NCBI GenBank assembly: GCA_964575345.1
Contig: CAZNQD010000001.1
Location: 100,367-164,366, forward strand
DNA: 64,000 nucleotides
Direction: 5' to 3'
Origin: an uncultured Bacteroidales bacterium
GTDB taxonomy: Bacteria > Bacteroidota > Bacteroidia > Bacteroidales > UBA1402
Shown here: positions 2,324 to 43,647 of the stretch, one piece after another
How positions within the stretch are numbered: the first letter of the stretch is position 1
Layout of the letters: each line of letters begins with the position of its first letter
Translations under genes and position numbers: made by a program
The notes under the pieces: generated by a model
Told to the model about the DNA's origin: nothing
The model's input: the letters and a program-made list of their open reading frames with translations, nothing else
Databases searched by the model: none

Positions 2324-2329
2324 ACCAAG

Positions 2330-3478: not shown

Positions 3479-3557
3479 AAGCATAAATTGTCCCCCGTGT
3501 TTGAAAGAAAAAATCAAAAATTTTTTCTGAAGTATTTGCCGAATACAAAAAAGATAG

Positions 3558-3565
3558 TACTTTTG
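3558..3565 (+). promoter_or_regulatory. Bacteroidota sigma-A -7 box candidate (TACTTTTG) for the tRNA cluster
   Basis: Exact TAnnTTTG match 11 nt upstream of the tRNA-Gly 5' end. A TTTG lies about 20 nt further upstream (3535-3538). Confidence 0.55.
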
Positions 3566-3575
3566 CTGCGCAATC

Positions 3576-3648
3576 GCGAAAATAGCTCAGTTGGTAGAGC
3601 ATAACCTTGCCAAGGTTAGGGTCGCGGGTTCGAGTCCCGTTTTTCGCT
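3576..3648 (+). tRNA. tRNA-Gly (anticodon GCC)
   Basis: Hand-folded cloverleaf. Acceptor GCGAAAA/TTTTCGC, D arm GCTC-AGTTGGTA-GAGC, anticodon stem TAACC/GGTTA with loop TTGCCAA, T arm GCGGG-TTCGAGT-CCCGT. Confidence 0.9.
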
Positions 3649-3654
3649 CTAAAT

Positions 3655-3680
3655 TAGCGACAGCGGTCGCTATTATTTTT
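3655..3680 (+). terminator. terminator-like hairpin between tRNA-Gly and tRNA-Leu
   Basis: TAGCGAC-agcg-GTCGCTA (7-bp stem) followed by TTATTTTT. A second hairpin, GGGAAGA...TCTTCCC, follows at about 3681-3709. Confidence 0.4.
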
Positions 3681-3725
3681 GGGAAGACTTCAGGTATCCG
3701 GCTCTTCCCTTTCAAGAGAATACGA

Positions 3726-3809
3726 ACCCAGGTGGTGGAATTGGTAGACACGCTACTTTGAGGGGGTAGTGGGCGTTCGCTCGTGTGAGTTCGAGTCTCA
3801 TCCTGGGTA
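3726..3809 (+). tRNA. tRNA-Leu (anticodon GAG)
   Basis: Acceptor ACCCAGG/CCTGGGT. Anticodon stem CTACT/GGTAG with loop TTGAGGG. Long variable arm. T arm GTGAG-TTCGAGT-CTCAT. Confidence 0.85.
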
Positions 3810-3829
3810 CTTTTTCCCTGCATCATCCT

Positions 3830-3913
3830 GCCCAGATGGTGAAATTGGTAGACACGCTAGTTTCAGGGACTAGTGGCCGAAAGGCTGTGCAGGTTCGAGT
3901 CCTGTTCTGGGCA
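3830..3913 (+). tRNA. tRNA-Leu (anticodon CAG)
   Basis: Acceptor GCCCAGA/TCTGGGC. Anticodon stem CTAGT/ACTAG with loop TTCAGGG. Long variable arm. T loop GGTTCGAGTCC. Confidence 0.85.
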
Positions 3914-3930
3914 CAATTATGTGAGACAAA

Positions 3931-3966
3931 AGCCCCGTAATTCAATGGATTACGGGGCTTTTGTTG
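3931..3966. terminator. bidirectional intrinsic terminator (tRNA cluster / convergent pseudouridine synthase gene)
   Basis: AAAGCCCCGTAA-ttcaatgga-TTACGGGGCTTT hairpin, with an A-run before it and a T-run after it. Confidence 0.7.
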
Positions 3967-3980
3967 TTTAAGTACTGAAA

Positions 3981-4913
3981 CTATTGTGTTTTTTTGTCCA
4001 GTTCCAGCAGGCGTAAGAACTCTTTGGGTGTTTCACTCTCAAAAAGCATTTGTTCTCCGCTGACCGGGTGGGTAAAAGCTAAAACACAGGCATGCAGCGC
4101 CATCCGTTTGATAGGGCTGACGTGTCCTCCGTATTTCAGATCGCCGGCAATCGGATAGCCTATGCTGTTCATTTGTACCCTGATCTGATTCTTTCTTCCA
4201 GTGTCAAGTTTAAATTCGGCTAAGCTGTAATGTTCGCTGCTTTTCAGTAATTTGTAATGAGTCACGGCTTTAAGTCCGTCTTCAGGATTAGGACTGGCAT
4301 ATACGATCAAAGCTTTGCTTTCCCACAAATAAGAAGTCACTGTCCCCTGACCGCTTCCATCGCCTGTTTGCGGAACACCCTCCAGTACTCCGGTGTATTT
4401 GCGCTGATTGACGGCAAAACGCCAGTTGGTTTGCATCAGAGACTGAATGTCCAGATTTTTGGCAAAAAGCATGATGCCCGATGTTTCCCTGTCCAGGCGA
4501 TGTACCACAAATATTTTATTGCCGGCTTGTTGTTTTTTTACATATTCGCTCAGTATGGAGTAAGCTGTCTTACTGCGCTCTTTGGCAGTACCTATCGACA
4601 ATAGGCCGGCGGATTTTTCTACAACGATCAGATACTTGTCTTCGAACAAGATCTTTAGTTTTGGGTGATTCAGGCTTAATTTGCCTTTAGTCCACAGGAT
4701 GTTGACCAGGTCACCTGTTTTGAGGGGATGATCGAATTGACGGATTACCTGTTGGTTGACCAATACTTGTTGATGGGCCAGTAAAGACTTGATACTATTG
4801 CGGGATTGATCCTTAAGTGTGTTTATAAGAAAATTCAACAAGGTCGATTCCTCAGTGACCGGAATACTACTGATTTTTTGTTTTTTGGGCTGAGAGCGCC
4901 CGTTTTTGTCCAT
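3981..4913 (-). CDS. RluA-family pseudouridine synthase with N-terminal S4-like domain
   Basis: HRLDRETSGIMLFAK catalytic-Asp motif. 310 aa, typical RluA/RluD size. Confidence 0.85.
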   Translation of the reverse strand: MDKNGRSQPKKQKISSIPVTEESTLLNFLINTLKDQSRNSIKSLLAHQQVLVNQQVIRQFDHPLKTGDLVNILWTKGKLSLNHPKLKILFEDKYLIVVEKSAGLLSIGTAKERSKTAYSILSEYVKKQQAGNKIFVVHRLDRETSGIMLFAKNLDIQSLMQTNWRFAVNQRKYTGVLEGVPQTGDGSGQGTVTSYLWESKALIVYASPNPEDGLKAVTHYKLLKSSEHYSLAEFKLDTGRKNQIRVQMNSIGYPIAGDLKYGGHVSPIKRMALHACVLAFTHPVSGEQMLFESETPKEFLRLLELDKKTQ

Positions 4914-4929
4914 ATGCTTTATTTTGATG

Positions 4930-4937
4930 CAAAGATA
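4930..4937 (-). promoter_or_regulatory. -7 box candidate (TATCTTTG) for the pseudouridine synthase gene
   Basis: Exact TAnnTTTG on the minus strand, 17 nt upstream of the ATG at 4913. Confidence 0.5.
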
Positions 4938-4981
4938 GAAATCTTTATACTCCCCGGGGGAGCATAGAACAGATTATTTAT

Positions 4982-4989
4982 TACATTTG
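4982..4989 (+). promoter_or_regulatory. -7 box candidate (TACATTTG) for paaK copy 1
   Basis: Exact TAnnTTTG, 32 nt upstream of the ATG at 5021. Confidence 0.5.
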
Positions 4990-5020
4990 CACATTTTTGA
5001 CGTAAAAACCCGTATAAAAG

Positions 5021-6313
5021 ATGTATTTGCATGCTGCCCTGGAAACACTGAGCCGAAACGGAATTGAGAAATTACAGATGGAAAGGCTCGGAAAAACTCT
5101 GAATCATTGCCTGAACTCCCCATTTTACCGTAAACGTTTTGAGGAATACAATCTCAAACCCGGGGATATTAAAACCCTGGACGATCTAAGGAAAATCCCT
5201 TTTACCACCAAAACCGACCTTCGCGACAATTATCCTTTTGGAATGTCTGCAGTGCCTTTGGAGCAGACAGTACGTTTGCATTCCTCCAGCGGTACCACCG
5301 GCAATCCAACTGTTGTGTTGCATACTCAGCACGATTTGGACCAATGGGCGGAAGCCGTGGCGCGATGTCTTTACATGGTCGGTTTGCGAAAATCCGACGT
5401 TTTTCAGAATTCCTCCGGTTATGGCATGTTCACCGGAGGCCTGGGTTTCCAATACGGGGCAGAACGTCTGGGTATGCTCACCGTGCCGGCTGCCGCAGGT
5501 AATACCCTGAGGCAAATTAAATTCATTACCGATTTCGGAACTACCGCCCTGCATGCCATACCAAGTTACGCCAGCCGCCTGTATGAAGTAATGCAGCAAC
5601 AAGGCATTGATCCGCGCGATACGAAATTACGGACACTTCTCATCGGAGCCGAACCCCATTCCGAAGCCCAGCGTAAACGTATAGAAGAAATGCTTGGGGT
5701 CAAAGCATACAATAGCTTCGGGATGTCCGAAATGTGCGGTCCGGGGGTTGCTTTTGAATGTCCTGAACAAAACGGTATGCATATCTGGGAAGATTATTAT
5801 ATTGTTGAAATCATCAATCCGGACACACTCGAACCGGTGACCGAAGGAGAAATGGGAGAAATGGTGTTGACGACCATTAACAGAGAAGCCATGCCCTTGC
5901 TGCGTTACCGTACCCGTGACCTTACACGTATCCTGCCCGGAAAATGCCCCTGTGGCCGGAATCATATACGTTTGGATCGAATGAAAGGCCGGAGTGACGA
6001 CATGATTATTCTGAAAGGGGTCAACATTTTTCCCATCCAGGTAGAAACCATCTTGATGAAATTCAAAGAGTTAAGCTCTAATTATCTTATAGTAATCGAC
6101 ACTGTCAATAACAACGACGAAATGAGCGTCGAGGTAGAACTCGAAGAATTGTTTACCGACGACTATGCCAAATTGCAAAACCTTACCAGAGAGATTACCC
6201 GGCAACTCAAAGATGAACTGCTGGTAACTCCCAAAGTAAAGCTGGTCAAAAAAGACAGCCTCCCCAGAACTGAAGGTAAGGCTGTTCGTGTCAATGATTT
6301 GCGTAACCATTAA
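5021..6313 (+). CDS. paaK: phenylacetate-CoA ligase (adenylate-forming, PaaK family), copy 1
   Basis: SSGTTGNPTV AMP-binding loop. About 430 aa. Collinear with the second copy at 28328-29632. Confidence 0.85.
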   Translation: MYLHAALETLSRNGIEKLQMERLGKTLNHCLNSPFYRKRFEEYNLKPGDIKTLDDLRKIPFTTKTDLRDNYPFGMSAVPLEQTVRLHSSSGTTGNPTVVLHTQHDLDQWAEAVARCLYMVGLRKSDVFQNSSGYGMFTGGLGFQYGAERLGMLTVPAAAGNTLRQIKFITDFGTTALHAIPSYASRLYEVMQQQGIDPRDTKLRTLLIGAEPHSEAQRKRIEEMLGVKAYNSFGMSEMCGPGVAFECPEQNGMHIWEDYYIVEIINPDTLEPVTEGEMGEMVLTTINREAMPLLRYRTRDLTRILPGKCPCGRNHIRLDRMKGRSDDMIILKGVNIFPIQVETILMKFKELSSNYLIVIDTVNNNDEMSVEVELEELFTDDYAKLQNLTREITRQLKDELLVTPKVKLVKKDSLPRTEGKAVRVNDLRNH

Positions 6314-6323
6314 TCCCTACACC

Positions 6324-6752
6324 ATGACTATTCATCAGATTTCCATTTTCATCGAAAACAAGCTGGGCTCTCTCAACGAGATCCTGAACATTATCAAATC
6401 GGAAAGACTGCAGATCATAGCATCCACCGTTTCCGATACAGTGGAATATGGCATTTACAGGGTTATTACTCCCGAACCGCGCAAGGCTTGCCTGGCATTA
6501 AAGAGCCGTGGACTGGCCGTGAACCTGACCGAGGTTTTTGCCATCTCTTTAGCCAATACCGTCGGTACTGCTGCCGAGACCATCTCCTATTTTACCCTGG
6601 CAGGCATCAATATTGAATACATGTATTCCTTTTATCTCGAGAACAGAGGCATCCTGATTATGCGTACCAGCGATACAGCCAGAACCATCGAAGTAATCGC
6701 TGCACACAGGCTGAATTGCCTGACCGAAGAAGAATTATTACAATTTAATTAA
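6324..6752 (+). CDS. ACT-domain protein, copy 1
   Basis: MTIHQISIFIENKLGSLNEIL is an ACT-type start and parallels MMLIKQLSIFLENKTGRLTEV of copy 2. The track ORF begins at 6288 inside paaK, so I prefer the ATG at 6324. Confidence 0.75.
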   Translation: MTIHQISIFIENKLGSLNEILNIIKSERLQIIASTVSDTVEYGIYRVITPEPRKACLALKSRGLAVNLTEVFAISLANTVGTAAETISYFTLAGINIEYMYSFYLENRGILIMRTSDTARTIEVIAAHRLNCLTEEELLQFN

Positions 6753-6763
6753 TACTCGTATTT

Positions 6764-6958
6764 ATGTTTGGAATCTCAGACCCCGGCATTTGGTTAGCCT
6801 ATTTACTGGAAATACTTTGTCTTGTTTTCGGTGCCTGGTACGGAATAAAATACTGGAATCAGAACGACGAAACCACCTCCTCCCGGCAGACGGCAAATGA
6901 CGTCAAACCAAAAGCATCGAAATCAACAAAACTCGCTGACAAGCATAGTCATAACTAA
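6764..6958 (+). CDS. small single-TM accessory protein of a solute:sodium symporter
   Basis: 64 aa with one hydrophobic helix (GIWLAYLLEILCLVFGAWYGI). Lies immediately upstream of the SSS transporter. This resembles the 'symporter small accessory protein' class. Confidence 0.5.
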   Translation: MFGISDPGIWLAYLLEILCLVFGAWYGIKYWNQNDETTSSRQTANDVKPKASKSTKLADKHSHN

Positions 6959-6968
6959 ACTTAGCACT

Positions 6969-8534
6969 ATGAATTATTTTGTATTGGGATTAATCGTTCT
7001 ACTCTATATCTTTACGTTGGCGGCCATTAGCTGGTATGCCTACAAAAATACCAAAAATGCCAACGACTACCTGATAGGCGGCGGCAATATGAGCTCTGCG
7101 GTGATGGCTTTGTCGTACGGAGCTACTTTTATTTCGGCATCGGCCATAGTGGGCTTTGGCGGTGTTTCGGCTGCCTATGGTATGGGTATTCAATGGCTTT
7201 GCCTGTTAAACATTTTGGTTGGTGTAATTATTGCTTTTATCTTTTTCGGCAAAAAAACCCGCAAGCTGGGAGCAGAACTTCAGGCTAAAACCTTTCCCCA
7301 ACTCCTGGGCGGCTATTTCCAATCTAAATCCATACAAGTTATTGCCGCAACAGTGATAGTACTTGGTATGCCTTTGTACGCAGCCGTTGTTATGAAGGGC
7401 GGTGCGGTGTTTATTGAACAGATTTTCAATATCAATTACAATATAGCTCTGCTCATTTTTACTCTGATTACTGCATTGTATGTCATCAGCGGTGGCATGA
7501 AAGGTGTTATGTACACCTCGGCTTTTCAGGCTGTAGTTATGTTTGTTTGTATGTTTTTAATGTTGTTCGGCTTGTACAAATCGCTGGGCATGGGTTTTTC
7601 CGAAGCTAACAGAGCTCTGGATTCCATCGATAGCCTGGTTCCTTCCAATTTCGCCTCGCTGGGGCATCAGGGCTGGGCCAAGATGCCTGTATTGGGATCA
7701 CCTCAATGGTACACATTGGTCACTTCGCTTATTTTGGGCGTGGGCATCGGTTGCCTGGCTCAGCCTCAACTGGTGGTGCGTTTTTTGACGGTTCGCAGCA
7801 GTAAACAATTAAATCAGGGCATTTTTGTCGGATCCTTGTTTCTTCTAATTACGGTTGGGGTGGTCTATCATGCCGGAGCCTTATCCAATTTATTCTTTTT
7901 GAAACACAACGGGCAGGTGGCCACCGAATACATCCCGGACATGGACAAAATCATTCCGGCCTTCATTAATGCGGCCATGCCCAATTGGTTTACAGCCTTG
8001 TTTATGCTGTGTATTTTATCGGCCAGTATGTCAACGCTGAGTTCTCAGTTTCATGTCATGGGGACTTCGGCCGCTTCGGATATCTACGCTGACGTTGTAC
8101 GCAAAAAGGAGCGTCAAAGTATTACCCGCCTGGTCAAAATAGGTGTCCTGGTATCCATACTGATCAGTTATGTCATTTGCTATACCCTCAAAGAAGGCGT
8201 CATTGCACGGGGTACGTCTATTTTTATGGGCTTGTGCGCAGCTACTTTCCTTCCCTCCTATTTTTGTATGCTCTATTGGAAAAAAACAAGCAGTAAAGCA
8301 GTGTTGTGGAGTATGTTGGCAGGAGCCGGCGGCAGTGTGTTTGCCCTTTTGTTTCTGCATCAGAAAGAAGCGGCAGCCATAGGTCTGTGTCAGGCTGTTT
8401 TCGGCCGTCCGGTATTAATCGAAGCGTATCCCTGGCCGGTGATTGATCCTATCTTAGTTGCCCTGCCCTTGTCAATTGTGGTAATTGTCCTGCTTAGTTT
8501 ATTAAACCGCAAACAGGGGCAAAAATCTGCTTAA
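6969..8534 (+). CDS. sodium:solute symporter (SSS) family transporter
   Basis: Polytopic membrane protein of about 520 aa. The start is set at the ATG at 6969 (MNYFVLGLIVLL...), after the stop of the small ORF. Confidence 0.8.
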   Translation: MNYFVLGLIVLLYIFTLAAISWYAYKNTKNANDYLIGGGNMSSAVMALSYGATFISASAIVGFGGVSAAYGMGIQWLCLLNILVGVIIAFIFFGKKTRKLGAELQAKTFPQLLGGYFQSKSIQVIAATVIVLGMPLYAAVVMKGGAVFIEQIFNINYNIALLIFTLITALYVISGGMKGVMYTSAFQAVVMFVCMFLMLFGLYKSLGMGFSEANRALDSIDSLVPSNFASLGHQGWAKMPVLGSPQWYTLVTSLILGVGIGCLAQPQLVVRFLTVRSSKQLNQGIFVGSLFLLITVGVVYHAGALSNLFFLKHNGQVATEYIPDMDKIIPAFINAAMPNWFTALFMLCILSASMSTLSSQFHVMGTSAASDIYADVVRKKERQSITRLVKIGVLVSILISYVICYTLKEGVIARGTSIFMGLCAATFLPSYFCMLYWKKTSSKAVLWSMLAGAGGSVFALLFLHQKEAAAIGLCQAVFGRPVLIEAYPWPVIDPILVALPLSIVVIVLLSLLNRKQGQKSA

Positions 8535-8589
8535 TGTTTGTTTATTAGGGCAATTTATTGTTGATTTGCAGGAATAATCCCAAAAACGT

Positions 8590-9018
8590 ATGAGATTGAT
8601 TGATTTGCCCAAAATTTTAGATAAAAGAGGCAACCTTTCTTTTGTCGAAGAATTAACCCAGATTCCCTTTGAAATTGAACGGGTATACTGGATTTACGAT
8701 GTGCCCGGAGGCGAAAGACGAGGCGGTCATGCTTACAGGGAAAACCAGGAATTTATCGTTGCTCTTTCCGGAAGCTTTGATGTGCTCTTAGACGATGGAA
8801 ACGAAAGGAAGGTGTTTTCCCTTAACAGGTCTTATTACGGTGTTTATGTTCCCAAGGGGATATGGCGCGAAATGAATAACTTTTCGACCAATTCCCTGGC
8901 CCTGATTTTGTCTTCTACTGCTTATTCCAAAGCGGATTATATTTATAATTACGAAGAGTTTCTTAAGTATGCTGCTTCCAGGGCTCCATCCGGCCCGGAT
9001 AAACCTAAGCAAGTATGA
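8590..9018 (+). CDS. FdtA/QdtA (WxcM-like) sugar 3,4-ketoisomerase paralog 1
   Basis: Cupin-type pattern: KRGNLSFVE...IPFEIERVYWIYDVPGGERRGGHAYRE. About 140 aa. Confidence 0.75.
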   Translation: MRLIDLPKILDKRGNLSFVEELTQIPFEIERVYWIYDVPGGERRGGHAYRENQEFIVALSGSFDVLLDDGNERKVFSLNRSYYGVYVPKGIWREMNNFSTNSLALILSSTAYSKADYIYNYEEFLKYAASRAPSGPDKPKQV

Positions 9019-9440
9019 AAAACACGGTTTACGATTGTTCTTTTATTGAATTACCCAGAATAGAATACAGAGCCGGAAACATTACTCCTGTTTACGGCAA
9101 CATAAACATACCTTTCAAAATCAGAAGGGTCTTTTATACCTACGATATTCCCGGAGGCGAAGCCCGCGGGGCTCATGCTCACAGGGAATGCCATCAGTTT
9201 CTGGTGGCAGCAGGGGGCAGTTTTGAAGTGGCTCTGGACGACGGGGTAAACAGACGGACTGTACTACTGAACCGGCCTTTTTACGGCCTGCATATTCCTC
9301 CGGGTATCTGGGCTGCCGAACAGGGTTTTTCGTCCGGTTCCGTTTGTTTGGTGCTGGCTTCGACCCCTTTCGACGAAAACGATTACATCAGGGATTACAA
9401 TGAGTTCAGGAATTTCAGAAAACAAATCGAAAAACAATAG
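9015..9440 (+). CDS. FdtA/QdtA (WxcM-like) sugar 3,4-ketoisomerase paralog 2
   Basis: IPFKIRRVFYTYDIPGGEARGAHAHRE and ENDYIRDYNEF, close to the FdtA pattern RG-HAH. ATGA overlap with paralog 1. Confidence 0.8.
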   Translation: MKNTVYDCSFIELPRIEYRAGNITPVYGNINIPFKIRRVFYTYDIPGGEARGAHAHRECHQFLVAAGGSFEVALDDGVNRRTVLLNRPFYGLHIPPGIWAAEQGFSSGSVCLVLASTPFDENDYIRDYNEFRNFRKQIEKQ

Positions 9441-37032: not shown

Positions 37033-37479
37033 TCAAACCGGAATCTTATCGATCCGCGTCTGATGCCTGCCCCCATCGAAACCGGTGTTCATGAATACTT
37101 CAAGTATTTGCACCGCTTCTTCCCGGCTGATGAATCTGGCCGGCAGACAACAAACGTTGGCGTTGTTGTGCTGGCGGGCTAATCGGGCTATTTCGGAATT
37201 CCAGCATAAAGTGCCTCTGATACCGGCGTGTTTATTTACAGTGATGGTCATGCCCTGTCCACTGCCGCAAATAGCTATTCCCATTCTGCATTCATCCTCC
37301 TCGACAGATTCGGCCAGAGGATGCGCAAAGTCGCTGTAGTCGCAACTGTCGGGTGAGTATGTTCCAAAATTTTTAAAAGGAATTTGTTTTTCTGTGAGCC
37401 AGTCACAAAGAAATTCTTTCAATTCAAAGCCGGCATGATCACTGCATATGGCAACCGGCACGTCGTCGTCGGGATTCAT
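37033..37479 (-). CDS. rpiB: ribose-5-phosphate isomerase B
   Basis: 148 aa. CGSGQGMTITVNKH and RHQTRIDKI motifs of RpiB/LacAB. Confidence 0.9.
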   Translation of the reverse strand: MNPDDDVPVAICSDHAGFELKEFLCDWLTEKQIPFKNFGTYSPDSCDYSDFAHPLAESVEEDECRMGIAICGSGQGMTITVNKHAGIRGTLCWNSEIARLARQHNNANVCCLPARFISREEAVQILEVFMNTGFDGGRHQTRIDKIPV

Positions 37480-37555
37480 TTTTATTTTAATATATGGAAT
37501 AATCTCATGTTAAACAGGCTGGAGATCTCAAAATCATAGTATTGATTCCAGTCGG

Positions 37556-37563
37556 CAAAGATA
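37556..37563 (-). promoter_or_regulatory. -7 box candidate (TATCTTTG) for rpiB
   Basis: Exact TAnnTTTG on the minus strand, 77 nt upstream of the ATG. Confidence 0.4.
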
Positions 37564-37645
37564 CAAATTAATTTATTTACACAAGGTCGGGCCGATTATT
37601 TTGTTTGTTGGTAAAAACTTTAAATCCTAAGCCAAAAAAACCTGA

Positions 37646-37653
37646 TATCTTTG
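37646..37653 (+). promoter_or_regulatory. -7 box candidate (TATCTTTG) for the SemiSWEET gene
   Basis: Exact TAnnTTTG, 29 nt upstream of the ATG at 37682. Confidence 0.5.
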
Positions 37654-37681
37654 TGTCTAATTGACCTTATAATTAAAGAAT

Positions 37682-37963
37682 ATGCATTTCACTTCAGTAG
37701 AACTGCTGGGACTGGCCGCCGCCTTGTTCTCGACCATCAACCAGATGCCTCAGGCCTGGAAAATAATCCGTAGTAAAGACACCGGCAGTATCTCATTATA
37801 CACCTACAGTTTGCTGTGGATAGCCGTTACTTTATGGTTGGTTTACGGAATTACCATCAACGACAAACCTCTGATTATTTCGAATACTATCAGTATTATT
37901 CCCATTACCTATATTTATTTTATCAAGCTTAAAAACGCGCTGTCGCGCAAAGAAAAAATTTAA
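37682..37963 (+). CDS. SemiSWEET / PQ-loop family 3-TM transporter
   Basis: 93 aa with three TM helices. PQ motif in NQMPQAWKIIRSKDTGSISL. Confidence 0.7.
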   Translation: MHFTSVELLGLAAALFSTINQMPQAWKIIRSKDTGSISLYTYSLLWIAVTLWLVYGITINDKPLIISNTISIIPITYIYFIKLKNALSRKEKI

Positions 37964-38745
37964 GCTTTAGATGTTCCTGCCACCAGCAGGATACTGATTT
38001 CGTAAAGCAGGAAAATAGGCAGTGAGACAATCGAGAGGGTAAAGATATCACCGGTTGGCGTAATGACGGCGGCAACAATAAGAATTACAACAATGGCGTA
38101 CCTGCGTTTCTTTTTCATAAAATCGGCCTTAAGCAGACCGATTTTAGCAAAGAACCAGGCCAATACCGGTATTTCAAACATTATTCCCATTAGGAGTGAC
38201 AAAACCACCAGGGTTTGCATATAGGAACTCAGGGTAATAGTGTTCACCACTTCCGGACTGACCTGATAAGTGCCTAAAAAACGAAAAGAGAGCGGGAAAA
38301 TAATATAATAGCTCAGCAGCACACCCAGGAAAAACAAACTGTACGCCCAAAAGAGTACTCGTCCGGAATATTTTTTTTCGTTATGGTAAAGTGCCGGCGA
38401 AATATAGCGAAAAAGGATAAATACAATGTATGGTGAGCTCAGCAATAAGGCAGCAAAAAAAGCCGCTTTCATATGTACAAAGAATTGGGCGGCAAGCTCG
38501 GTACTAATCAGTTTTACTTCGAATTCGGGTAAGGACATCTGAGGCCAGGCAAGCGACGAAGACAACTGATTGATAAGCCTGTAAAGTACGAAATCGGCCC
38601 GGTGTGGCGCCAAAATTATAGTAAAAAGGGTTTCTTTAAAGGCAAAAGCAATCATAGTCATAGCTGCCACAACTACGACTACGCGAATTAAAACAACTCT
38701 GAGTTCATCCAAATGTTCCCAGAATGTAAGTTTCTTCTCCGTCAT
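37960..38745 (-). CDS. tatC: twin-arginine translocase subunit TatC
   Basis: 261 aa with six TM helices. FWEHLDELR start is typical of TatC. Confidence 0.9.
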   Translation of the reverse strand: MTEKKLTFWEHLDELRVVLIRVVVVVAAMTMIAFAFKETLFTIILAPHRADFVLYRLINQLSSSLAWPQMSLPEFEVKLISTELAAQFFVHMKAAFFAALLLSSPYIVFILFRYISPALYHNEKKYSGRVLFWAYSLFFLGVLLSYYIIFPLSFRFLGTYQVSPEVVNTITLSSYMQTLVVLSLLMGIMFEIPVLAWFFAKIGLLKADFMKKKRRYAIVVILIVAAVITPTGDIFTLSIVSLPIFLLYEISILLVAGTSKA

Positions 38746-38754
38746 ACAGCTTTT

Positions 38755-38961
38755 TTATTGTTTATCGCTGTCTTTTTCTTTTTTATTGCTAAGCGATTCG
38801 TCGTCGGTACTGTTCATTTCTTTTTTGAAACTTTTGATGCCTTTGCCGATTCCTTTCATGATATCGGGAATCTTGGTGGCTCCAAACAATAAAAGAATAG
38901 CCAGTGCGATAAGAATCAGTTCCGGGGTACCCAACCCCAATAATAATGGCAAGTAATACAT
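38755..38961 (-). CDS. tatA: twin-arginine translocase subunit TatA/E
   Basis: 68 aa. GTPELILIALAILLLFGATKIPDIMKGIGKGIKSFKKEM (TM helix, FG hinge, amphipathic helix). Confidence 0.9.
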   Translation of the reverse strand: MYYLPLLLGLGTPELILIALAILLLFGATKIPDIMKGIGKGIKSFKKEMNSTDDESLSNKKEKDSDKQ

Positions 38962-38978
38962 ATTGTTAGTTTTTAGTG

Positions 38979-40586
38979 TTAAAATCCGAAATCGTCCAGG
39001 ACGACCTCTTCTCTTTCTTCGTCTTCAAAAACCTTGGCAGGCTGTTGAATTTCGTGTCCTTCAACATAAACAGCTTTATAAGGTGCTACGGGGCAAATAA
39101 ACTCACAGCCGCCACAACCAATGCAAATATCCGGATGTGGTTCCGGAATGGTCAGGTTGCCTTTGTAGGGAACCATTCTGAGCGCCTGGGTGGGACAATG
39201 TTCCGAACAGGCCCCACAATGGGTTTCATTACGGTAAACAACGCAGTTTTCAAGCACAAAAACCACCCTGCCCATTTGCGTACGATGTTTTTCTTCTTTG
39301 GTCAGCGTTTTCAGGGCACCGCTGGGACAAACTTCGGTACACAGGGTGCAGTCGTAATTGCAATAGCCCCTGTCAAACAACATTTGAGGTTGCATAAGAC
39401 CTTCGGCGCCGTATTGCAGCAAGCCGGGTTGCAGCACGTTGCCCGGGCATTTGCTGACGCAGAGATGGCAGGAAGTACATAAATTATTGAAACGTGCTCT
39501 GTCTCCGGCGCCGGGAGGCATCAGAGGCACAGTTCTCTTTAAAGGCCGGAGATTGTTGATCAGTTCCGGATTGAAGCCGGCGGCCAAAGCTTTGGGCAGT
39601 AATAAGCTGCTCATCATCAAAACCGAAAGAAATTCCCGTTTGGAGGCATCCGGGTTTGTTTTAGCATTTGTTTTGGCTTTGGTTTCAATTTTTGTATTGG
39701 TCTCGATTTTTTTATTGGTCTCGATTTTTGTCCGGTTCGTGTCGATTTCCTGTTTTTTTACTTTCCAAAAAGGAAGGTACCGCACCGCTTTTTTGTTGCA
39801 GGTTTCCATGCAGTTGAAACAAGCGACGCAACGGCTGTAATCGATGTTTGCTTTTTTATTATCAATACAGGAGGCCTTACAATTGAAACTGCAAAGACCG
39901 CATTGATTACAGGTTTCGTGGTTAATACTCAATCTGAACACGGAAAACTTGCTAAAAAAGCCCAAAACCGTACCTACCGGGCAAATGGTATTACACCAAC
40001 TGCGACCAAAACGCCAGGCCAGAACAGAGACCACCAACAAGCTTAGCAGGGCAAGGCCAAACGAAGTCCAACCCCAGAAAGGAATATCGACTTTGTAAAA
40101 AGTGTAATTATTGAAAGCAGTAAATAAATGCTCCAGGCCGTTGTTGGCAGCCATATATACAGGCTTGAACAAGTGAACAGCTATTCTTCCGTATATACTG
40201 TAGGGGTCAAGTAAATCCAATACCAATCCAAGGCCGCTTACATAGGTAATGACCACCAGTGATAAAACCGACCAGCGTAAAATCGTTTTTGCCTTGCGGA
40301 ATCTATGCCTGAGTTTTTTCTTGCGAAAAAGATTGGCCAGCCTGGAGACCACATCCTGATAGATTCCCAAAGGACAAATTATTGAACAATAAACCCTGCC
40401 AAAAACCAGCGTAAGCAGCAAAAGCAGCAATAAAATGCCCATGGAAAGTGAAAGTAAGGCCGGAACCAGCTGAATCTTTGTTATAGACTGCACACTTTCC
40501 GGAAGAAGATGGGAGAAATCCAGAAAAAAGAATGTCAACACAATAATGGCCACTATTGCCAGACCAATTCTAAGCTTTCTTAGCAT
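38979..40586 (-). CDS. membrane-bound polyferredoxin, apparent NapH-like / NapG-like fusion (six 4Fe-4S motifs)
   Basis: Four N-terminal TM helices with two CX3CP motifs (CSIICP, CNTICP). Two CxxCxxCxxxC motifs. A repeat linker. SKREFL plus a hydrophobic segment. Then four CxxCxxCxxxCP-type motifs. Confidence 0.75.
   Translation of the reverse strand: MLRKLRIGLAIVAIIVLTFFFLDFSHLLPESVQSITKIQLVPALLSLSMGILLLLLLLTLVFGRVYCSIICPLGIYQDVVSRLANLFRKKKLRHRFRKAKTILRWSVLSLVVITYVSGLGLVLDLLDPYSIYGRIAVHLFKPVYMAANNGLEHLFTAFNNYTFYKVDIPFWGWTSFGLALLSLLVVSVLAWRFGRSWCNTICPVGTVLGFFSKFSVFRLSINHETCNQCGLCSFNCKASCIDNKKANIDYSRCVACFNCMETCNKKAVRYLPFWKVKKQEIDTNRTKIETNKKIETNTKIETKAKTNAKTNPDASKREFLSVLMMSSLLLPKALAAGFNPELINNLRPLKRTVPLMPPGAGDRARFNNLCTSCHLCVSKCPGNVLQPGLLQYGAEGLMQPQMLFDRGYCNYDCTLCTEVCPSGALKTLTKEEKHRTQMGRVVFVLENCVVYRNETHCGACSEHCPTQALRMVPYKGNLTIPEPHPDICIGCGGCEFICPVAPYKAVYVEGHEIQQPAKVFEDEEREEVVLDDFGF
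39681..39734. repeat. three imperfect 18-bp in-frame tandem repeats (KIETN-type hexapeptides) in the polyferredoxin linker
   Basis: GGTTTCAATTTTTGTATT / GGTCTCGATTTTTTTATT / GGTCTCGATTTTTGTCCG, with degenerate copies flanking. Confidence 0.7.
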
Positions 40587-40596
40587 TCTTATTTGA

Positions 40597-41529
40597 TTAG
40601 AGCTTAATCCTTTTTATGTTCAGTTTGTTTAAGTCAGTAGTACCCAGACCTAATTCTTCTCCAAATCCCAGGTGTTTAACCACATCCATGGGCATAGAAC
40701 GAATCTGATTGAAAAAGGAAGTGGCGGCGGTATCGACTGCGACAATTTCCGGCGATACGAACAGAGCCTTTGACAAGACCACATCCGATTCAGAACGCCC
40801 CTGAGGTCCGTTGGTCTGCAAGACACGATAGGCATCCACCACATTAAGCACCGGTTTTTTGTTCAGCGTGCAAATGTCGGCAATGCATTGTTGTAAACCT
40901 TTCATATGAAAGGTCCTGCGATCCCAGACAATACCCATGTAATTTTTCATGGAAATGGTCAGTCCTGAACCACCGTGATTTTTGAGTATAGGCACATTGA
41001 TCCAGACGTCACTGTCTAAAATGGCCTGATGAATCTTGGCATCTTTAAGTATCTTTCCCTGAGGCAATTCCACTTGCCGGTAATAAGATTCCTGATTAGC
41101 GGGCAATACTTTGGCTCCGGCTTCTTTAGCGGCAGCTTCGATGCCGCTGTTTTGATAACATTTCACCCAGTCGTCGCAGGTATGATCGAACACGGTTACT
41201 TCGGAAGCTCCGGCAGCAAAACATTGCCTGATGATTTCTGCGATAAGCAGCGGATTGGTGTTTCCGGCTCTTTCGGGCACTCTGTCCCAGCCGATATTGG
41301 GTTTGATGCAAACCTTTTGTCCACTTTTGACAAATCGATTCATGCCTCCGAATTCGGCAATAGCCTTTTTGAACATTTGGTCGGGTTCTCCTCCCATAAC
41401 TGCAACCATATCAACCGCCTGTTCTGCTTTTTTCTCTTCGGGAACAAGAGCGGCCAGCGACTTTGCCGGTTTTACGGCTAATCCTATTCCGGCCAAAGCG
41501 AAAATCTTTAAAAAATTTCTTCTGTTCAT
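40597..41529 (-). CDS. DUF362-domain protein with twin-arginine signal peptide
   Basis: MNRRNFLKIFALAGIGLAVKPAKSLA (RRxFLK plus AxA). The remainder resembles DUF362 from memory. Confidence 0.65.
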   Translation of the reverse strand: MNRRNFLKIFALAGIGLAVKPAKSLAALVPEEKKAEQAVDMVAVMGGEPDQMFKKAIAEFGGMNRFVKSGQKVCIKPNIGWDRVPERAGNTNPLLIAEIIRQCFAAGASEVTVFDHTCDDWVKCYQNSGIEAAAKEAGAKVLPANQESYYRQVELPQGKILKDAKIHQAILDSDVWINVPILKNHGGSGLTISMKNYMGIVWDRRTFHMKGLQQCIADICTLNKKPVLNVVDAYRVLQTNGPQGRSESDVVLSKALFVSPEIVAVDTAATSFFNQIRSMPMDVVKHLGFGEELGLGTTDLNKLNIKRIKL

Positions 41530-41560
41530 GGCTAAATGAATGTAATTTATAAAACAAAAA

Positions 41561-41598
41561 TTCGGGAAACCCTGGCAAATATACCACAGTTTCCCGAA
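41561..41598 (-). terminator. intrinsic terminator downstream of tkt
   Basis: TTCGGGAAAC...GTTTCCCGAA 10-bp stem, followed on the minus strand by ATTTTTGTTTT. Confidence 0.6.
41576..41583 (-). promoter_or_regulatory. -7 box candidate (TATATTTG) for the DUF362-polyferredoxin-tatAC operon
   Basis: Exact TAnnTTTG on the minus strand, 47 nt upstream of the ATG at 41529. It lies in the loop of the tkt terminator hairpin. Confidence 0.45.
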
Positions 41599-41625
41599 AA
41601 AATGTAAGCTATAAACAATTATTAA

Positions 41626-43647
41626 TTAAGCCAAAAAGGATTTTACCTGTTTATAAACATTGGCAGCGTTGAAGCCCAGCTTTTCGTCCAAAACTTTGTA
41701 GGGAGCCGAAAAACCGAACGATTCCAACCCCCAGATCTTCCCTTTGTCGCCAACGAGCCCCAGAAGAGTAACCGGTAAACCGGCGGTCATACCAAAGATT
41801 TTGGATCCGGCAGGCAAAACTTCTTCCTGATAAGCCGGACTTTGGTTACGGAACAAGCCTTCGGAAGGAACCGATACTACGCGCAGTTTAATGCCGTCTT
41901 TGCGTAACAGTTCTGCTCCTTCGACCAGGGTGGATACTTCCGAACCCGAAGCCAGCAGTATAACATCAAAATCACCGTCACAACTGACCACGTAAGCACC
42001 CTTTTGGGCTTGCAAAGCTTGTTTGTACGAACTTCCGGGTAAATTCTTAATATTCTGGCGGCTCAGGATAAAAGCAGTAGGTGTATGCGTATTTTCCAGG
42101 GCCATTTTATAAGCTACGGTGCATTCGTTAGCGTCTGCCGGACGTAAAACCAACATGGAATTGTTGCCTTTGTGATTTTTGAGTTTTTCCATCAGGCGGA
42201 TTTGAGCTTCCTGTTCAACGGGCTCGTGCGTAGGTCCGTCCTCACCTACCCTGAAGGCGTCGTGGGTCCAGATGAATTTAACAGGTACCTCCATCAAAGC
42301 AGCCATACGAACGGCCGGTTTCATGTAATCGGAAAAGACAAAGAAGGTTCCGCAGGCAGGAATCACACCGCCGTGCAGGCCCATACCTATGCAGACGCAA
42401 GCCATGGTCAGCTCGGCAACTCCGGCCTGGAGGAAGGCTCCGCTGAAATCGCCCTTGGTCATGGCCTTGGTTTTTTTGAGGAAACCATCGGTTTTGTCGG
42501 AATTCGACAGGTCGGCCGAAGCCACGATCATGTTCTCAACCTGAGTAGCCAGAGTGCCAAGGACTGCAGCAGAAGCAGCCCGGGTGGCGATGCCTTCTTT
42601 TTGTTCTATAGCTTCCCAGTTAATCTGAGGAACTACTTTGTTGAACCAATCTTCCATTTTTTTGGCCAGTGCAGGTTGTTGAGCAGTCCAGGTTGCTTTT
42701 TTAGCTTTTTTGTCCTTCATTATTACTTCCAGCTCTTTACGCCTGGAGGCATAGAGTTCAGCCACATCGGGGAAAACACGGAATGGATCTGCCGGATTGC
42801 CGCCCAGATTCTCAATGGTTTTAGCGTAACTGGCTCCGGCTTCGCCCAAGGGCATGCCGTGTGTTGAACATTGGTTCTCAAAGGATTTGCCTTCTTCGGT
42901 AAGGCTGCCTTTGCCCATTACGGTATGCCCGATGATCAAAGTGGGTTGAGCTTTGGTTTGCAGGGCTTCGTTCAAAGCTTTACGAATTTCATCAACATCA
43001 TTTCCGTTGATATCAATCACTTTCCAGCCCCAGGCCTGATACTTGGCAGCCGTATTTTCGCTGGTAACAGCGGAAACACCGGTTGAAAGCTGAATGGCGT
43101 TGGAGTCGTAAAACATAACCAGATTATCCAAACCCAGGTGGCCGGCCAAACGTCCTGCTCCTTGAGAAATTTCTTCCTGTACACCCCCGTCAGAAATAAA
43201 GGTATAGATGGTTTGGTTCATCTGTTCGCCAAATTTGCTTTGCAGGAACTTGGCAGCAATGGCCGCACCCACTGCATAGGTATGTCCCTGTCCCAGAGGC
43301 CCTGAAGTGTTTTCGATTCCTCTCTGTATATCCACTTCGGGATGTCCCGGTGTGGGGCTGCCCCATTGACGGAATTGGGCCAGTTCTTCCATGCTGAATT
43401 TTCCGCTCATGGCCAGCACCGAATACAACATGGGTGACATGTGGCCGGGATCCAGAAAGAAGCGGTCGCGTCCTTCCCAGGCAGGATTATGGGGATCGTA
43501 GATCAGGTATTCAGAAAATAGTACGTTGATAAAGTCAGCTCCGCCCATCGCGCCTCCGGGATGGCCAGATTTGGCCTTTTCAACCATAGAGGCAGCCAAT
43601 ATGCGAATATTGTCGGCTGCTTTGTTCATTAATGTAGTTGAATTCAT
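41626..43647 (-). CDS. tkt: transketolase
   Basis: 673 aa. SGHPGGAMGGAD, ISDGGVQEEIS and HEPVEQ motifs. Confidence 0.95.
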   Translation of the reverse strand: MNSTTLMNKAADNIRILAASMVEKAKSGHPGGAMGGADFINVLFSEYLIYDPHNPAWEGRDRFFLDPGHMSPMLYSVLAMSGKFSMEELAQFRQWGSPTPGHPEVDIQRGIENTSGPLGQGHTYAVGAAIAAKFLQSKFGEQMNQTIYTFISDGGVQEEISQGAGRLAGHLGLDNLVMFYDSNAIQLSTGVSAVTSENTAAKYQAWGWKVIDINGNDVDEIRKALNEALQTKAQPTLIIGHTVMGKGSLTEEGKSFENQCSTHGMPLGEAGASYAKTIENLGGNPADPFRVFPDVAELYASRRKELEVIMKDKKAKKATWTAQQPALAKKMEDWFNKVVPQINWEAIEQKEGIATRAASAAVLGTLATQVENMIVASADLSNSDKTDGFLKKTKAMTKGDFSGAFLQAGVAELTMACVCIGMGLHGGVIPACGTFFVFSDYMKPAVRMAALMEVPVKFIWTHDAFRVGEDGPTHEPVEQEAQIRLMEKLKNHKGNNSMLVLRPADANECTVAYKMALENTHTPTAFILSRQNIKNLPGSSYKQALQAQKGAYVVSCDGDFDVILLASGSEVSTLVEGAELLRKDGIKLRVVSVPSEGLFRNQSPAYQEEVLPAGSKIFGMTAGLPVTLLGLVGDKGKIWGLESFGFSAPYKVLDEKLGFNAANVYKQVKSFLA

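Follow-up and report, generated by a model that had tools for sequence, protein, structure and literature searches.

The window analyzed here, a 64,000-nucleotide stretch from an uncultured Bacteroidales bacterium, carries four minus-strand open reading frames encoding a DUF362 protein, a polyferredoxin (PFD), TatA and TatC, in that order. The intergenic gaps are 10, 17 and 9 nt, and the four same-strand genes with 9–17 nt gaps described in an earlier note on this DNA were all confirmed at their coordinates. The layout of the locus is as follows.

41561–41598, minus strand: strong hairpin UUCGGGAAACU...GGUUUCCCGAA with a U-run behind it, in the gap that separates the transketolase stop codon from the start of DUF362
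41576–41583, minus strand: candidate -7 promoter box TATATTTG, fitting the Bacteroides consensus TAnnTTTG
40597–41529, minus strand: DUF362 protein, 310 aa; PF04015 E 2e-49; starts MNRRNFLK
38979–40586, minus strand: Fe-S protein (PFD), 535 aa; Fer4_5 twice plus several Fer4 families
39762–40586, minus strand: NapH-like part of PFD, residues 1–275; E. coli NapH residues 71–282, BLASTP E 2e-11
39645–39761, minus strand: cytoplasmic linker (predicted), residues 276–314; Lys/Thr/Asn/Glu-rich, low-complexity, repeat-derived
39579–39644, minus strand: putative internal Tat-type signal, or fifth transmembrane segment (TM5), residues 315–336; S-K-R-E-F-L, weak h-region, P-K, A-L-A|A
38979–39578, minus strand: NapG-like part, residues 337–535; E. 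coli NapG residues 5–196, 29% identity, BLASTP E 4e-15; predicted periplasmic
38755–38961, minus strand: tatA, 68 aa; PF02416 E 4e-15; TIGR01411 61.4 bits (cut-off 53.9)
37960–38745, minus strand: tatC, 261 aa; PF00902 E 3e-60; TIGR00945 157.7 bits (cut-off 132.7)
37936–37949, minus strand: terminator-like hairpin and T-run, 11 nt past the tatC stop, from a consensus scan only

Judging only from the short gaps, DUF362, PFD, tatA and tatC are probably one transcription unit. The order of the unit would be hairpin/terminator, promoter, DUF362, PFD, tatA, tatC and terminator. The upstream hairpin has a predicted RNA fold of -31.3 kcal/mol (z = -8.3), with 0/200 shuffles as stable, and is nearly unchanged across three close relatives. 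It is probably the intrinsic terminator of the transketolase gene, tkt, so that the unit would begin downstream of it. The promoter proposed earlier at 41576–41583 stands as an 8-mer that fits the consensus, lies 47 nt before the DUF362 ATG and is kept in relatives. TATATTTG is the sole minus-strand TAnnTTTG match in the 96-nt tkt–DUF362 gap, as well as between 38619 and 41583. However, since matches to the consensus are about as frequent in the window as expected by chance (69 vs 56 ± 8 in shuffles) and the box sits inside the terminator-like hairpin, TATATTTG is plausible but unproven as a promoter. The hairpin past tatC is the probable end of the unit.

Sequence comparisons support the view that PFD is a fusion of two parts, one NapH-like and the other NapG-like. 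The protein contains the motifs CSIICP, CNTICP, CNQCGLCSFNC and CVACFNCMETC and four C-terminal Cys groups. The NCBIfam NapH and NapG models match it with E-values of 3e-19 and 3e-15, respectively, although both scores fall well short of the cut-offs set for these families. In the N-terminal half, where BLASTP aligns residues 31–275 with E. coli NapH, we find four hydrophobic helices (about residues 7–25, 44–62, 107–125 and 172–190) and two CX3CP and two CxxCxxCxxxC motifs, whose predicted location is the cytoplasmic side; the NapH-like character ascribed to this half is upheld. The loop at residues 62–103 has 11 K/R, and the positive-inside calculation, from hydrophobicity and K/R counts, agrees with the earlier supposition that the NapH-like part ends in the cytoplasm. 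The linker that follows differs in length among homologues, with a gapped alignment, and includes an 18-nt unit repeated 2.9 times (39679–39731) and a 12-nt unit repeated 2.6 times (39655–39685), as found by TRF.

Residues 310–498 match NapG, including its signal, with RRRFL aligned on KREFL and VRLRPPGA on VPLMPPGA. The NapG-like part has a basic patch (R347, K350, R351) and an invariant P..PPG. Its four Cys groups would hold four [4Fe-4S] clusters, and its C-terminal tail, D-F-G-F, is likewise invariant, with FGF present in 80/80 orthologues. The earlier note had described four CxxCxxCxxxCP clusters. Four Cys groups are indeed present, but only two are canonical; the variant spacings of the other two are the same as those of E. 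coli NapG. The two Fe-S halves would lie on opposite sides of the membrane, a placement that rests on sequence logic because the AF2 model of PFD (pLDDT 44.6) is unusable.

The internal segment, residues 315–336, maps exactly to nt 39579–39644, and SKREFL aligns on GRRRFL of the Tat signal of E. coli NapG. Among the 120 closest homologues, S315 is found in 118, R317 and F319 in all and L320 in 118, and position 316 is K in 109 and R in 11. Among 147 diverse representatives with less than 50% mutual identity, position 316 is R in 115 and K in 30, and position 317 is R in 140; the pattern [R/K]-R-x-[F/L]-[L/I] holds across this set. The internal KR Tat-like segment recognized earlier is real, in that its motif is kept in all homologues examined and aligns on the NapG signal, and the KREFL segment proved to be conserved in orthologues. 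TM5 is the least hydrophobic of PFD's five segments. Its Hessa-scale sum is +4.4 vs -0.1, -4.4, +2.4 and +0.5 for TM1–4, and the mean over the 120 homologues is +7.1 vs -3.1 to +1.9. The basic positions after it (346, 347, 350 and 351) are kept among these homologues. An RR is missing altogether in 18/77 PFD orthologues, and the window PFD, with K-R-E, is without an Arg pair in any register. TtrB provides a natural, functional Lys in the first position of a Tat motif (PMC1182353). In E. coli, conservative R-to-K changes in Tat motifs are often poorly tolerated (PMC7317946), which, with the K-R-E of the window, would count against the Tat reading.

The DUF362 protein, in agreement with what was claimed for it, has a twin-arginine signal, N-R-R-N-F-L-K, followed by an h-region and SLA|A, on a PF04015 protein. 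The RR is kept in 69/73 orthologues at genome loci, and 28/31 orthologues match TIGR01409 TAT_signal_seq. The protein is about 70% identical across Bacteroidales. Its AF2 model has a pTM of 0.72, and the fold search that had been suggested returned LarA-type racemases for all of the top 12 PDB matches (E 4e-6 to 3e-4). The modeled fold is therefore described as LarA-like, and the protein is predicted to be a periplasmic catalytic partner. Other DUF362 proteins bear fused 2x[4Fe-4S] domains, suggesting that ferredoxin-type clusters feed DUF362.

DUF362 is immediately upstream of PFD in 74/77 informative species loci, and we infer that the two are functional partners. We propose the following model, which as a whole we consider probable. 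Helices 1–4 would be inserted by Sec, so that the CX3CP pair, both [4Fe-4S] sites of this part and the Lys-rich linker stay on the cytoplasmic side. Sec would be unable to insert the fifth segment, which is weakly hydrophobic and has the basic patch behind it. Four [4Fe-4S] clusters would be loaded into the NapG-like domain in the cytoplasm, and TatAC would then read the internal S-K-R-x-F-L and carry the folded domain to the periplasm. DUF362, with an N-terminal RR signal of its own, would take the Tat route independently and serve as the periplasmic catalytic partner, wired to the menaquinone pool via PFD; the direction of its reaction and its substrate are matters of prediction.

A variant compatible with this model is that signal peptidase I cuts at A335 after Tat transport. 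If so, one gene would give rise to two products, a NapH-like protein in the membrane (about 335 residues) and a NapG-like ferredoxin with four clusters (about 200 residues) that is soluble or peripherally bound. There is a Sec-type precedent in Bradyrhizobium japonicum, whose fbcH product is split into cytochromes b and c1 by cleavage at an internal signal. Cleavage at ALA-A, raised in the earlier note, fits a conserved signal-peptidase-like site in homologues. In 119/120 of the closest homologues the residue at position 335 is small (A84/G27/S4/T4), with L/V/A at position 333 and G/P/T at 331. The [AGS]|Gln found in 103/120, with Gln at position 336, suggests cleavage, and a Gln at +1 marks signal peptidase I sites specifically in Bacteroidetes (PMC5837995, PMC10653852). 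In the DUF362 partners, the N-terminal Tat signal has the same kind of ending, [VIL]-L-[AST]|Q, and the Gln is found in 115/121. The equivalent Gln is rare among the diverse family representatives (8/147), PFD2 paralogues read VEA|QQ and IEA|QE, and the window clade retains A-x-A/S|A/T/S. On the other hand, this support is a motif, the window clade has no Gln, and the -3 residue is mostly Leu, which is allowed though not preferred. In addition, Rieske-type Tat signals with similar c-regions remain uncleaved, and Tooke et al. treated the segment as a membrane anchor and needed to engineer a cleavage site into their fusions. We regard cleavage as a real possibility, somewhat short of an even chance.

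The tatC orthologues across Bacteroidales are 54–62% identical, and tatAC is beside this exact DUF362–PFD pair only in the window's genus. Searches with tblastn and HMMs found no tatA or tatC within 8 kb of the orthologous pair at any of 80 other species loci. It follows that co-location is not needed for function, and that to speak of a module with "its own export machinery" was an overstatement. In a related genome (locus L093), the order araDAB-tkt-(HAD, ApbA)-tatA-tatC-rpiB reproduces the window's flanks without the pair; since tatAC there occupies the same tkt...rpiB position, the window's tatA and tatC look like the cell's general TatAC. We suggest that tatA and tatC are the general minimal TatAC, which the pair came to adjoin upstream in the window's genus, so that substrates and translocase would be made together. 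The same absences, and an adjacency seen only in relatives with 81–86% identical PFD that have the whole neighbourhood in common, would also suit a neutral, one-genus rearrangement beside a housekeeping tatAC, without regulatory or functional meaning. We consider this rather unlikely. Four of six other sampled Bacteroidales tatC contexts have a same-strand PFD-family gene within 8 kb upstream of tatAC, in three cases a paralogous PFD beside a Tat-signal aldo-keto-reductase/Fe-S lipoprotein and in one DUF362–PFD itself, so that the link between Tat and the PFD class is real. A 169-aa membrane protein encoded directly upstream of tatA in 4/6 contexts is the orthologue of that upstream of DUF362–PFD in 51/80 loci, and in the window the gaps are short, with no -7 box between PFD and tatA. 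Synteny of tatAC with these genes thus stands for the window's genus and, as PFD-type modules, elsewhere, but not for the orthologous pair in other species.

As to the electron source, cytoplasmic ferredoxin or flavodoxin, not menaquinol, might deliver electrons at the NapH-like [4Fe-4S] sites, making PFD a transmembrane conduit to the periplasm. The NapH-like part retains both CX3CP motifs as well as two cluster motifs on the cytoplasmic side, and two flavodoxin-family genes are directly upstream of a paralogous PFD at locus L092. However, the N-terminus of one of these flavodoxin-like proteins resembles a signal, no membrane-bridging cofactor is evident in the helices, and NapGH and NosGH are taken to be quinol dehydrogenases (PMC5449189). 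We consider a cytoplasmic donor unlikely.

It is very improbable that the internal segment, with its first-position Lys, Glu at the x position and short, weak h-region, is a relic of a NapG signal in a four-helix protein with a cytoplasmic C-terminal half and no relation to Tat, since decay would then be expected, yet R317, F319 and L320 are (near-)invariant in 120 homologues and the pattern is kept in 147 representatives, the conserved partner DUF362 has a bona fide Tat signal, hence is periplasmic, and the homologous MLMS-1 protein exports a C-terminal reporter by Tat.

The earlier interpretation is thus partly supported, namely in the fusion, the internal signal, the predicted topology and the cleavage idea. 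As an example of dual insertion it named only actinobacterial Rieske proteins; in fact, Tooke et al. 2017 (eLife, PMC5449189) tested exactly the NapH–NapG class and showed dual Sec/Tat insertion experimentally for such a polyferredoxin. Dual insertion is already described, so that only part of what is confirmed here is new. What appear to be new are the DUF362–PFD pairing, Lys-Arg in place of Arg-Arg and the signal-peptidase-like site behind the signal. In the polyferredoxin of delta proteobacterium MLMS-1, MBP and AmiA fusions and RR-to-KK mutants showed that TMD5 needs Tat, and the Sec-to-Tat handover depended on low TMD5 hydrophobicity and on positive charges after TMD5 (PMC5449189). The window PFD likewise has a fifth helix of low hydrophobicity with a basic patch behind it. 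The overall layout proposed for DUF362–PFD resembles that of NapGH feeding a periplasmic reductase.

The 535-residue polyferredoxin of the window (hereafter PFD) is a fusion of NapH-like and NapG-like parts with a Tat-type signal in its interior. Its gene is preceded by one for a Tat-signal DUF362 protein and followed by tatA and tatC. The four open reading frames of the earlier note are present on the minus strand, and Pfam and NCBIfam bear out their family assignments. The features of the locus are as follows.

Features of the DUF362-PFD-tatAC locus (window positions)
41561–41598, minus strand: hairpin with U-run, in the 96 nt between the transketolase gene (tkt) and DUF362; −31.3 kcal/mol, z = −8.3
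41583–41576, minus strand: candidate −7 promoter 8-mer TATATTTG, inside the tkt-DUF362 hairpin
40597–41529, minus strand: DUF362 gene, 310 aa; PF04015, E 2e-49
38979–40586, minus strand: Fe-S protein (PFD) gene, 535 aa; two Fer4_5 matches and several Fer4 families
38755–38961, minus strand: tatA, 68 aa; TIGR01411, 61.4 bits (cut-off 53.9)
37960–38745, minus strand: tatC, 261 aa; TIGR00945, 157.7 bits (cut-off 132.7)
37949–37936, minus strand: small terminator-like hairpin 3′ of tatC

The DUF362/PFD, PFD/tatA and tatA/tatC gaps measure 10, 17 and 9 nt. The tatA and tatC genes adjoin and both score above their curated family cut-offs, which qualifies them as a minimal TatAC pair. Across three close relatives the hairpin after tkt hardly varies, less than its flanks do, and it has the look of a tkt terminator. 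Together with the hairpin after tatC, it provides plausible edges for a four-gene unit, and we infer that DUF362, PFD, tatA and tatC are co-transcribed. The 8-mer that had been proposed as a promoter does match the −7 consensus of Bacteroides. It is enclosed by the hairpin, however, and in the window the frequency of the consensus is at chance level (69 matches vs. 56 ± 8). Terminator and promoter may overlap there. A sigma-70 promoter scan was dropped, as it gave a chance-level result with a model unsuited to Bacteroidota. Rfam scans of the window and eight related loci yielded no riboswitch as a clue to a ligand, only tRNAs and the GibS sRNA (RF04182). The latter follows PFD at a distance of a few kb in three Bacteroides genomes (L002, 15036–15179; L008, 12635–12778; L027, 16243–16386) and is probably unrelated to the module. 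A gene for a 93-aa PQ-loop/SWEET-type membrane protein (37682–37963, plus strand) is convergent with tatC, the stops overlapping by 4 nt, and is kept in the close relatives.

In BLASTP, PFD residues 31–275 align with residues 71–282 of E. coli K-12 NapH (22% identity, E 2e-11), across both CX3CP and both cluster motifs, and residues 310–498 align with residues 5–196 of E. coli K-12 NapG (29% identity, E 4e-15). In the latter alignment, S-K-R-E-F-L falls on the NapG Tat motif G-R-R-R-F-L, and V-P-L-M-P-P-G-A falls on V-R-L-R-P-P-G-A. It follows that PFD is a NapH–NapG fusion that keeps the NapG signal peptide as an internal segment. All of the Cys motifs quoted in the earlier note are present, and the 16 Cys of the C-terminal NapG-like domain, forming four [4Fe-4S] motifs, are invariant in 26 sequences. 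Scores against the NCBIfam NapH model (69 bits, cut-off 234) and NapG model (56 bits, cut-off 269) fall far short of the equivalog cut-offs. The neighbours of PFD are arabinose genes, transketolase, tatAC, the PQ-loop protein and rpiB, with napA, napB and napC absent among them, and no molybdoenzyme, cytochrome c or nos gene lies near the window PFD. As judged from sequence and neighbourhood, PFD is NapGH-like in its working yet not Nap.

Hydropathy and charge analysis gives PFD four strong hydrophobic segments, at about residues 7–25, 44–62, 107–125 and 172–190, and a weak fifth at 319–337. There are 11 Lys/Arg residues in the loop 62–103, which carries CSIICP, and 20 in the stretch after helix 4. 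The predicted topology is that of NapH, with the N-terminus inside and the NapH-like part ending in the cytoplasm. By Hessa sums, a position-independent approximation rather than dGpred, the fifth segment (TM5) scores +4.4 in the window PFD as against −4.4 to +2.4 for the other helices; in the same approximation, the means over the 120 best-matching homologues are +7.1 and −3.1 to +1.9, respectively. Positive charges lie at or beyond TM5 (K332, R347, K350 and R351 in the window PFD), and columns 346, 347, 350 and 351 hold K or R in most of the 120 homologues. An AF2 model of the 535-aa PFD from a 26-sequence alignment was unusable (pLDDT 44.6, pTM 0.36), and a PDB sequence search with the PFD profile returned generic ferredoxin domains only, the MvhB and FwdF polyferredoxins being the best. 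The linker between the two parts, predicted to be cytoplasmic (residues about 286–311; 39655–39731, minus strand), is a lineage-specific low-complexity K/T/N/E repeat of IETN.K units. Tandem repeats of 18 and 12 nt gave rise to it, and it differs in length among relatives, whose PFDs run from 515 to 547 aa.

The internal segment, residues 315–336, maps to nt 39579–39644, just as the earlier note had placed it. Its conservation was assessed in the 120 homologues, which are mostly about 50% identical and come from Proteiniphilum, Fermentimonas, Bacteroides and Paludibacteraceae, as follows.

Residues at the internal Tat-type motif of PFD in 120 homologues
Position 315 (S in the window): S in 118
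Position 316: K in 109, R in 11
Position 317 (R in the window): R in all 120
Position 318: R in 110, Q in 4, E in 3, K in 2, S in 1
Position 319 (F in the window): F in all 120
Position 320 (L in the window): L in 118

The earlier note had let its reading depend on conservation of the KREFL segment, and the motif is kept throughout these homologues. Most read S-K-R-R-F-L; the window PFD and its four closest relatives (81–100% identical) read S-K-R-E/Q-F-L. At the species level, residues 316–317 are K-R in 58 of 77 orthologues and R-R in 19, and 18 of the 77 have no R-R in any register. The wider family comprises 1923 relatives at E ≤ 1e-30 among 1.84 billion cluster representatives. In an alignment of 147 diverse full-length ones, position 316 is R in 115 and K in 30, 317 is R in 140 and K in 4, 318 varies, F predominates at 319, and 320 holds L or I. 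This column pattern fixes the register, so that K316-R317 stand at the twin-arginine positions of the canonical S-R-R-x-F-L motif. The putative window signal keeps the place and consensus of S-x-R-x-F-L with Lys for the first Arg, and has no R-R in any register. In E. coli, R-to-K changes in Tat signals are generally ill tolerated (PMC7317946). In three Prevotellaceae MAGs (L061, L064 and L069), the DUF362 N-terminal signals read M-D-R-K-E/D-F-L-R, with R-K for R-R; this second natural variant with one arginine in the module also suggests that a single arginine is tolerated in this lineage. Since K-R is the majority form in the PFD subfamily, predictors based on R-R, such as TATFIND, would miss members, and lists of Bacteroidota Tat substrates are probably incomplete.

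After the hydrophobic region of the signal, the 120 homologues have G/P/T at position 331, K/S/N at 332 and L/V/A at 333. Position 335 is small in 119, and position 336 is Gln in 103. Signal peptidase I sites with Gln at +1 are a hallmark specific to Bacteroidetes (PMC5837995, PMC10653852). The same ending, [VIL]-L-[AST]/Q (the slash marks the predicted site), is seen in the N-terminal Tat signals of the partner DUF362 proteins, with Gln in 115 of 121, and Gln at the column equivalent to 336 is rare among the diverse representatives (8 of 147). The earlier note had raised cleavage at A-L-A/A. The small residue at 335 and the Gln at 336 in homologues favour that idea; the window clade itself, with A-L-A/A, lacks the Gln. 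On these motifs, we hold signal-peptidase cleavage after the internal PFD signal to be a serious possibility, somewhat short of an even chance. Should such cleavage occur, it would be a new route to a two-subunit membrane complex from a single gene. A cleavage-site heuristic was discarded in favour of the column counts, as it chose alanines inside the hydrophobic region. The length of the uncharged run was tried as a means of separating a long anchor helix, in distant relatives, from a short signal peptide, in Bacteroidales; it gave no discrimination, and that argument was dropped.

The DUF362 protein matches PF04015 at 168.6 bits (gathering score 24) over profile positions 1–199 of 200. Its N-terminus, M-N-R-R-N-F-L-K-IFALAGIGLAV-KPAK-SLA/A, has a Tat motif, a moderately hydrophobic region and an A-x-A-type site. 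R3 is invariant and R4 is present in 119 of 121 sequences; R-R signals occur in 69 of 73 DUF362 orthologues, and TIGR01409 is matched by 28 of 31, the window copy not being among the reported matches. Pairing with PFD is conserved: a DUF362 gene lies directly upstream of the orthologous PFD gene in 74 of the 80 loci from other species, contig edges accounting for three of the six exceptions, and the DUF362 orthologues, at about 70% identity, are better conserved than the PFDs. An AF2 model (pLDDT 64.8, pTM 0.72, moderate in quality) went into the fold search that the earlier note had suggested; its 12 best PDB matches by Foldseek are LarA-type lactate/malate racemases (E 4e-6 to 3e-4), in agreement with the Pfam clan, CL0471, in which DUF362 is placed with the LarA superfamily (DUF2088) (PMC11770544). 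A sequence search of the PDB gave no solved DUF362 relative, and a literature search found no functional study of DUF362/PF04015 or of a Bacteroides polyferredoxin.

Elsewhere there are DUF362 proteins with 2x[4Fe-4S] domains inserted in them, a fusion which argues that DUF362 enzymes draw electrons from ferredoxin-type clusters. For the window DUF362, the clusters would be supplied in trans by the NapG-like domain of PFD. The conserved pairing yields a hypothesis for the large DUF362 family: an enzyme of the periplasm that receives electrons through an Fe-S wire linked to quinol. PFD ends in D-D-F-G-F (residues 531–535; 38979–38993, minus strand). The F-G-F ending is found in all 80 DUF362-paired PFDs and is absent from the paralogues paired with an aldo-keto-reductase/Fe-S protein; this tail may be a partner-docking motif. 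In 11 of the 80 loci, a second DUF362 gene lies about 2 kb upstream of the pair (2611–3732 in L033); its product is of cytoplasmic type, with 373 aa and an inserted 2x[4Fe-4S] domain.

The linkage to tatAC has a different distribution. The whole neighbourhood is common to relatives whose PFD is 81–86% identical, but in the 80 other species loci neither tatA nor tatC was found within 8 kb of the pair by tblastn and HMMs. TatC orthologues are 54–62% identical across Bacteroidales, and six further tatC contexts were surveyed, as follows.

Further tatC contexts in Bacteroidales
L093 (GCA_017464285.1), 3665–9338: araD-araA-araB-tkt-(HAD, ApbA)-tatA-tatC-rpiB, the window flanks without the pair
L086: 169-aa membrane protein alone upstream of tatA
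L088 (Butyricimonas), 1–4282; L090 (Paludibacteraceae MAG), 715–4008; L092, 932–7255: paralogous PFD module on one strand with tatA-tatC
L094 (Azobacteroides contig): TonB receptor-DUF362-PFD about 5 kb upstream of tatAC
169–170-aa membrane protein gene: L086, 5133–5642; L088, 5292–5804; L090, 4012–4521; L092, 7268–7780; L039 (one of the 80 species loci), 2076–2585

L093 and positions 37033–43647 of the window have araDAB-tkt, tatA-tatC-rpiB-YggS and UvrB in common, a HAD hydrolase and an ApbA-type reductase replacing DUF362-PFD in L093, which marks where insertion or replacement took place. It follows that the tat genes occupy a conserved general position, where the pair either arrived by insertion or, in L093, has been lost. 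These flanks without the pair, and the absence of tatAC within 8 kb in the other species, make the earlier phrase "its own export machinery" too strong; our comparison makes the window tatAC look like a single general translocase. Within the 64-kb window, DUF362 is the sole credible protein with an N-terminal R-R signal, the only other candidate being a spurious antisense ORF.

Beside the PFD of the paralogous module come an aldo-keto-reductase/Fe-S protein that has an R-R signal as well as a lipobox, a TM1506 protein, in some cases a BtuB-like TonB receptor, and the 169-aa protein, then tatA-tatC. This PFD is 41% identical and has the internal sequence S-R-R-K-F-L ... VEA/QQ. The module in L092 also includes two flavodoxin-family genes. 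The conserved polytopic membrane protein of 169–170 aa lies directly upstream of tatA in four of the six contexts and is absent from the window. In 51 of the 80 loci, a gene preceding (phosphoribosyltransferase)-DUF362-PFD encodes a protein 59–64% identical to the copy next to tatA. The membrane protein has no significant NCBIfam or Pfam family, its one weak Pfam match being ECF S-component-like, and it may transport the module's substrate or act as a Tat-associated factor. Linkage of Tat genes to PFD-type substrates recurs in Bacteroidales, and this repeated placement is a genetic handle on the role of Tat in the order.

The new elements here are a Bacteroidales subfamily whose internal signal is Lys-Arg, the conserved partnership with DUF362, recurrent tatAC linkage and a candidate peptidase site after the internal signal. 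Dual Sec/Tat insertion is known from very few protein classes; the present one would be a large and abundant group that includes human-gut Bacteroides. A wider reading, which we consider unlikely, is that Bacteroidales would keep Tat mainly for a few NapH–NapG-type PFD modules, explaining the recurrent tatAC; that the fused gene would be a Tat-type case of "one gene, two proteins", in which the internal K-R signal, once exported through Tat, would undergo a signal peptidase I cut, with Gln or pyroglutamate as the new N-terminus in most species; and that DUF362 would be a new class of periplasmic, Fe-S-fed, LarA-fold enzyme, taking up a nutrient or cofactor reductively together with a BtuB-like TonB receptor and a small membrane protein that resembles an S-component.

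The closest known system is that of Tooke et al. (eLife 2017; PMC5449189), who looked for proteins in which a twin-arginine motif follows an even number of helices. Their polytopic polyferredoxin Q1NSB0, from delta proteobacterium MLMS-1, is described as a NapH–NapG fusion (PMC5449189). With MBP and AmiA as fusion partners, the fifth helix (338–359) and the part that follows were shown to be exported by Tat, export being lost on R-R to K-K substitution, and release from Sec depended on low helix hydrophobicity and downstream positive charges (PMC5449189). Like the window PFD, Q1NSB0 has a NapH-like four-helix part, cytoplasmic Fe-S motifs, a fused NapG-like four-cluster domain, a Tat-type motif directly before a weakly hydrophobic fifth segment that is similarly placed (338–359 vs. 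319–337, likened by the published description) and positive charges after it; Sec-then-Tat insertion has been demonstrated by experiment for Q1NSB0. The observation in the earlier note was correct and its mechanistic reading largely right: the proposed dual insertion is well founded, given the weak fifth segment and the basic patch, but the central idea was published in 2017, and the belief that such insertion is known only from actinobacterial Rieske proteins is outdated. The differences are that the motif of Q1NSB0 is R-R and that of the window PFD K-R-E, and that members of the Bacteroidales subfamily end invariantly in D-F-G-F and show an [AGS]/Q site of signal-peptidase type. Bacteroidota are not among the phyla given for polytopic polyferredoxins, and the conserved DUF362 partner and tatAC linkage seen here are not described in that work (PMC5449189).

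The quinol dehydrogenase NapGH, in E. coli as in Wolinella succinogenes, and also NosGH have the same two modules with the same predicted sidedness, and the Tat signal of NapG aligns residue for residue with the internal PFD segment. The modules there are separate polypeptides, with gene order G then H, serving NapAB or NosZ, whereas the window PFD is fused in the order H–G. The actinobacterial Rieske proteins (Sco2149, QcrA) are likewise polytopic, with a last helix that is a Tat signal and an Fe-S domain moved by Tat after Sec insertion, but they differ in protein family, cluster type and helix number.

The chloroplast Rieske protein has a natural Lys-Arg Tat signal. Salmonella TtrB, an Fe-S protein, has a natural Lys at the first twin-arginine position of a functional signal (PMC1182353). 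Both of these signals are N-terminal; that of PFD is internal, and K-R is the majority form in its subfamily (58 of 77 species loci). The window DUF362 resembles LarA in fold only, with no LarA model match and no PDB sequence match, and differs in its length (310 vs. about 420 aa), its predicted periplasmic location and its linkage to Fe-S proteins. In LarA, the nickel-pincer cofactor is bound by Lys and His residues (K183, H185, K195 and H208). Finally, tatAd-tatCd of Bacillus subtilis adjoin phoD, and tatAC of Staphylococcus aureus adjoin fepABC. As in the window, a minimal TatAC there lies beside, and is probably co-expressed with, one of few Tat substrates; the B. subtilis pair is a dedicated second translocase, unlike the apparently general one of the window.
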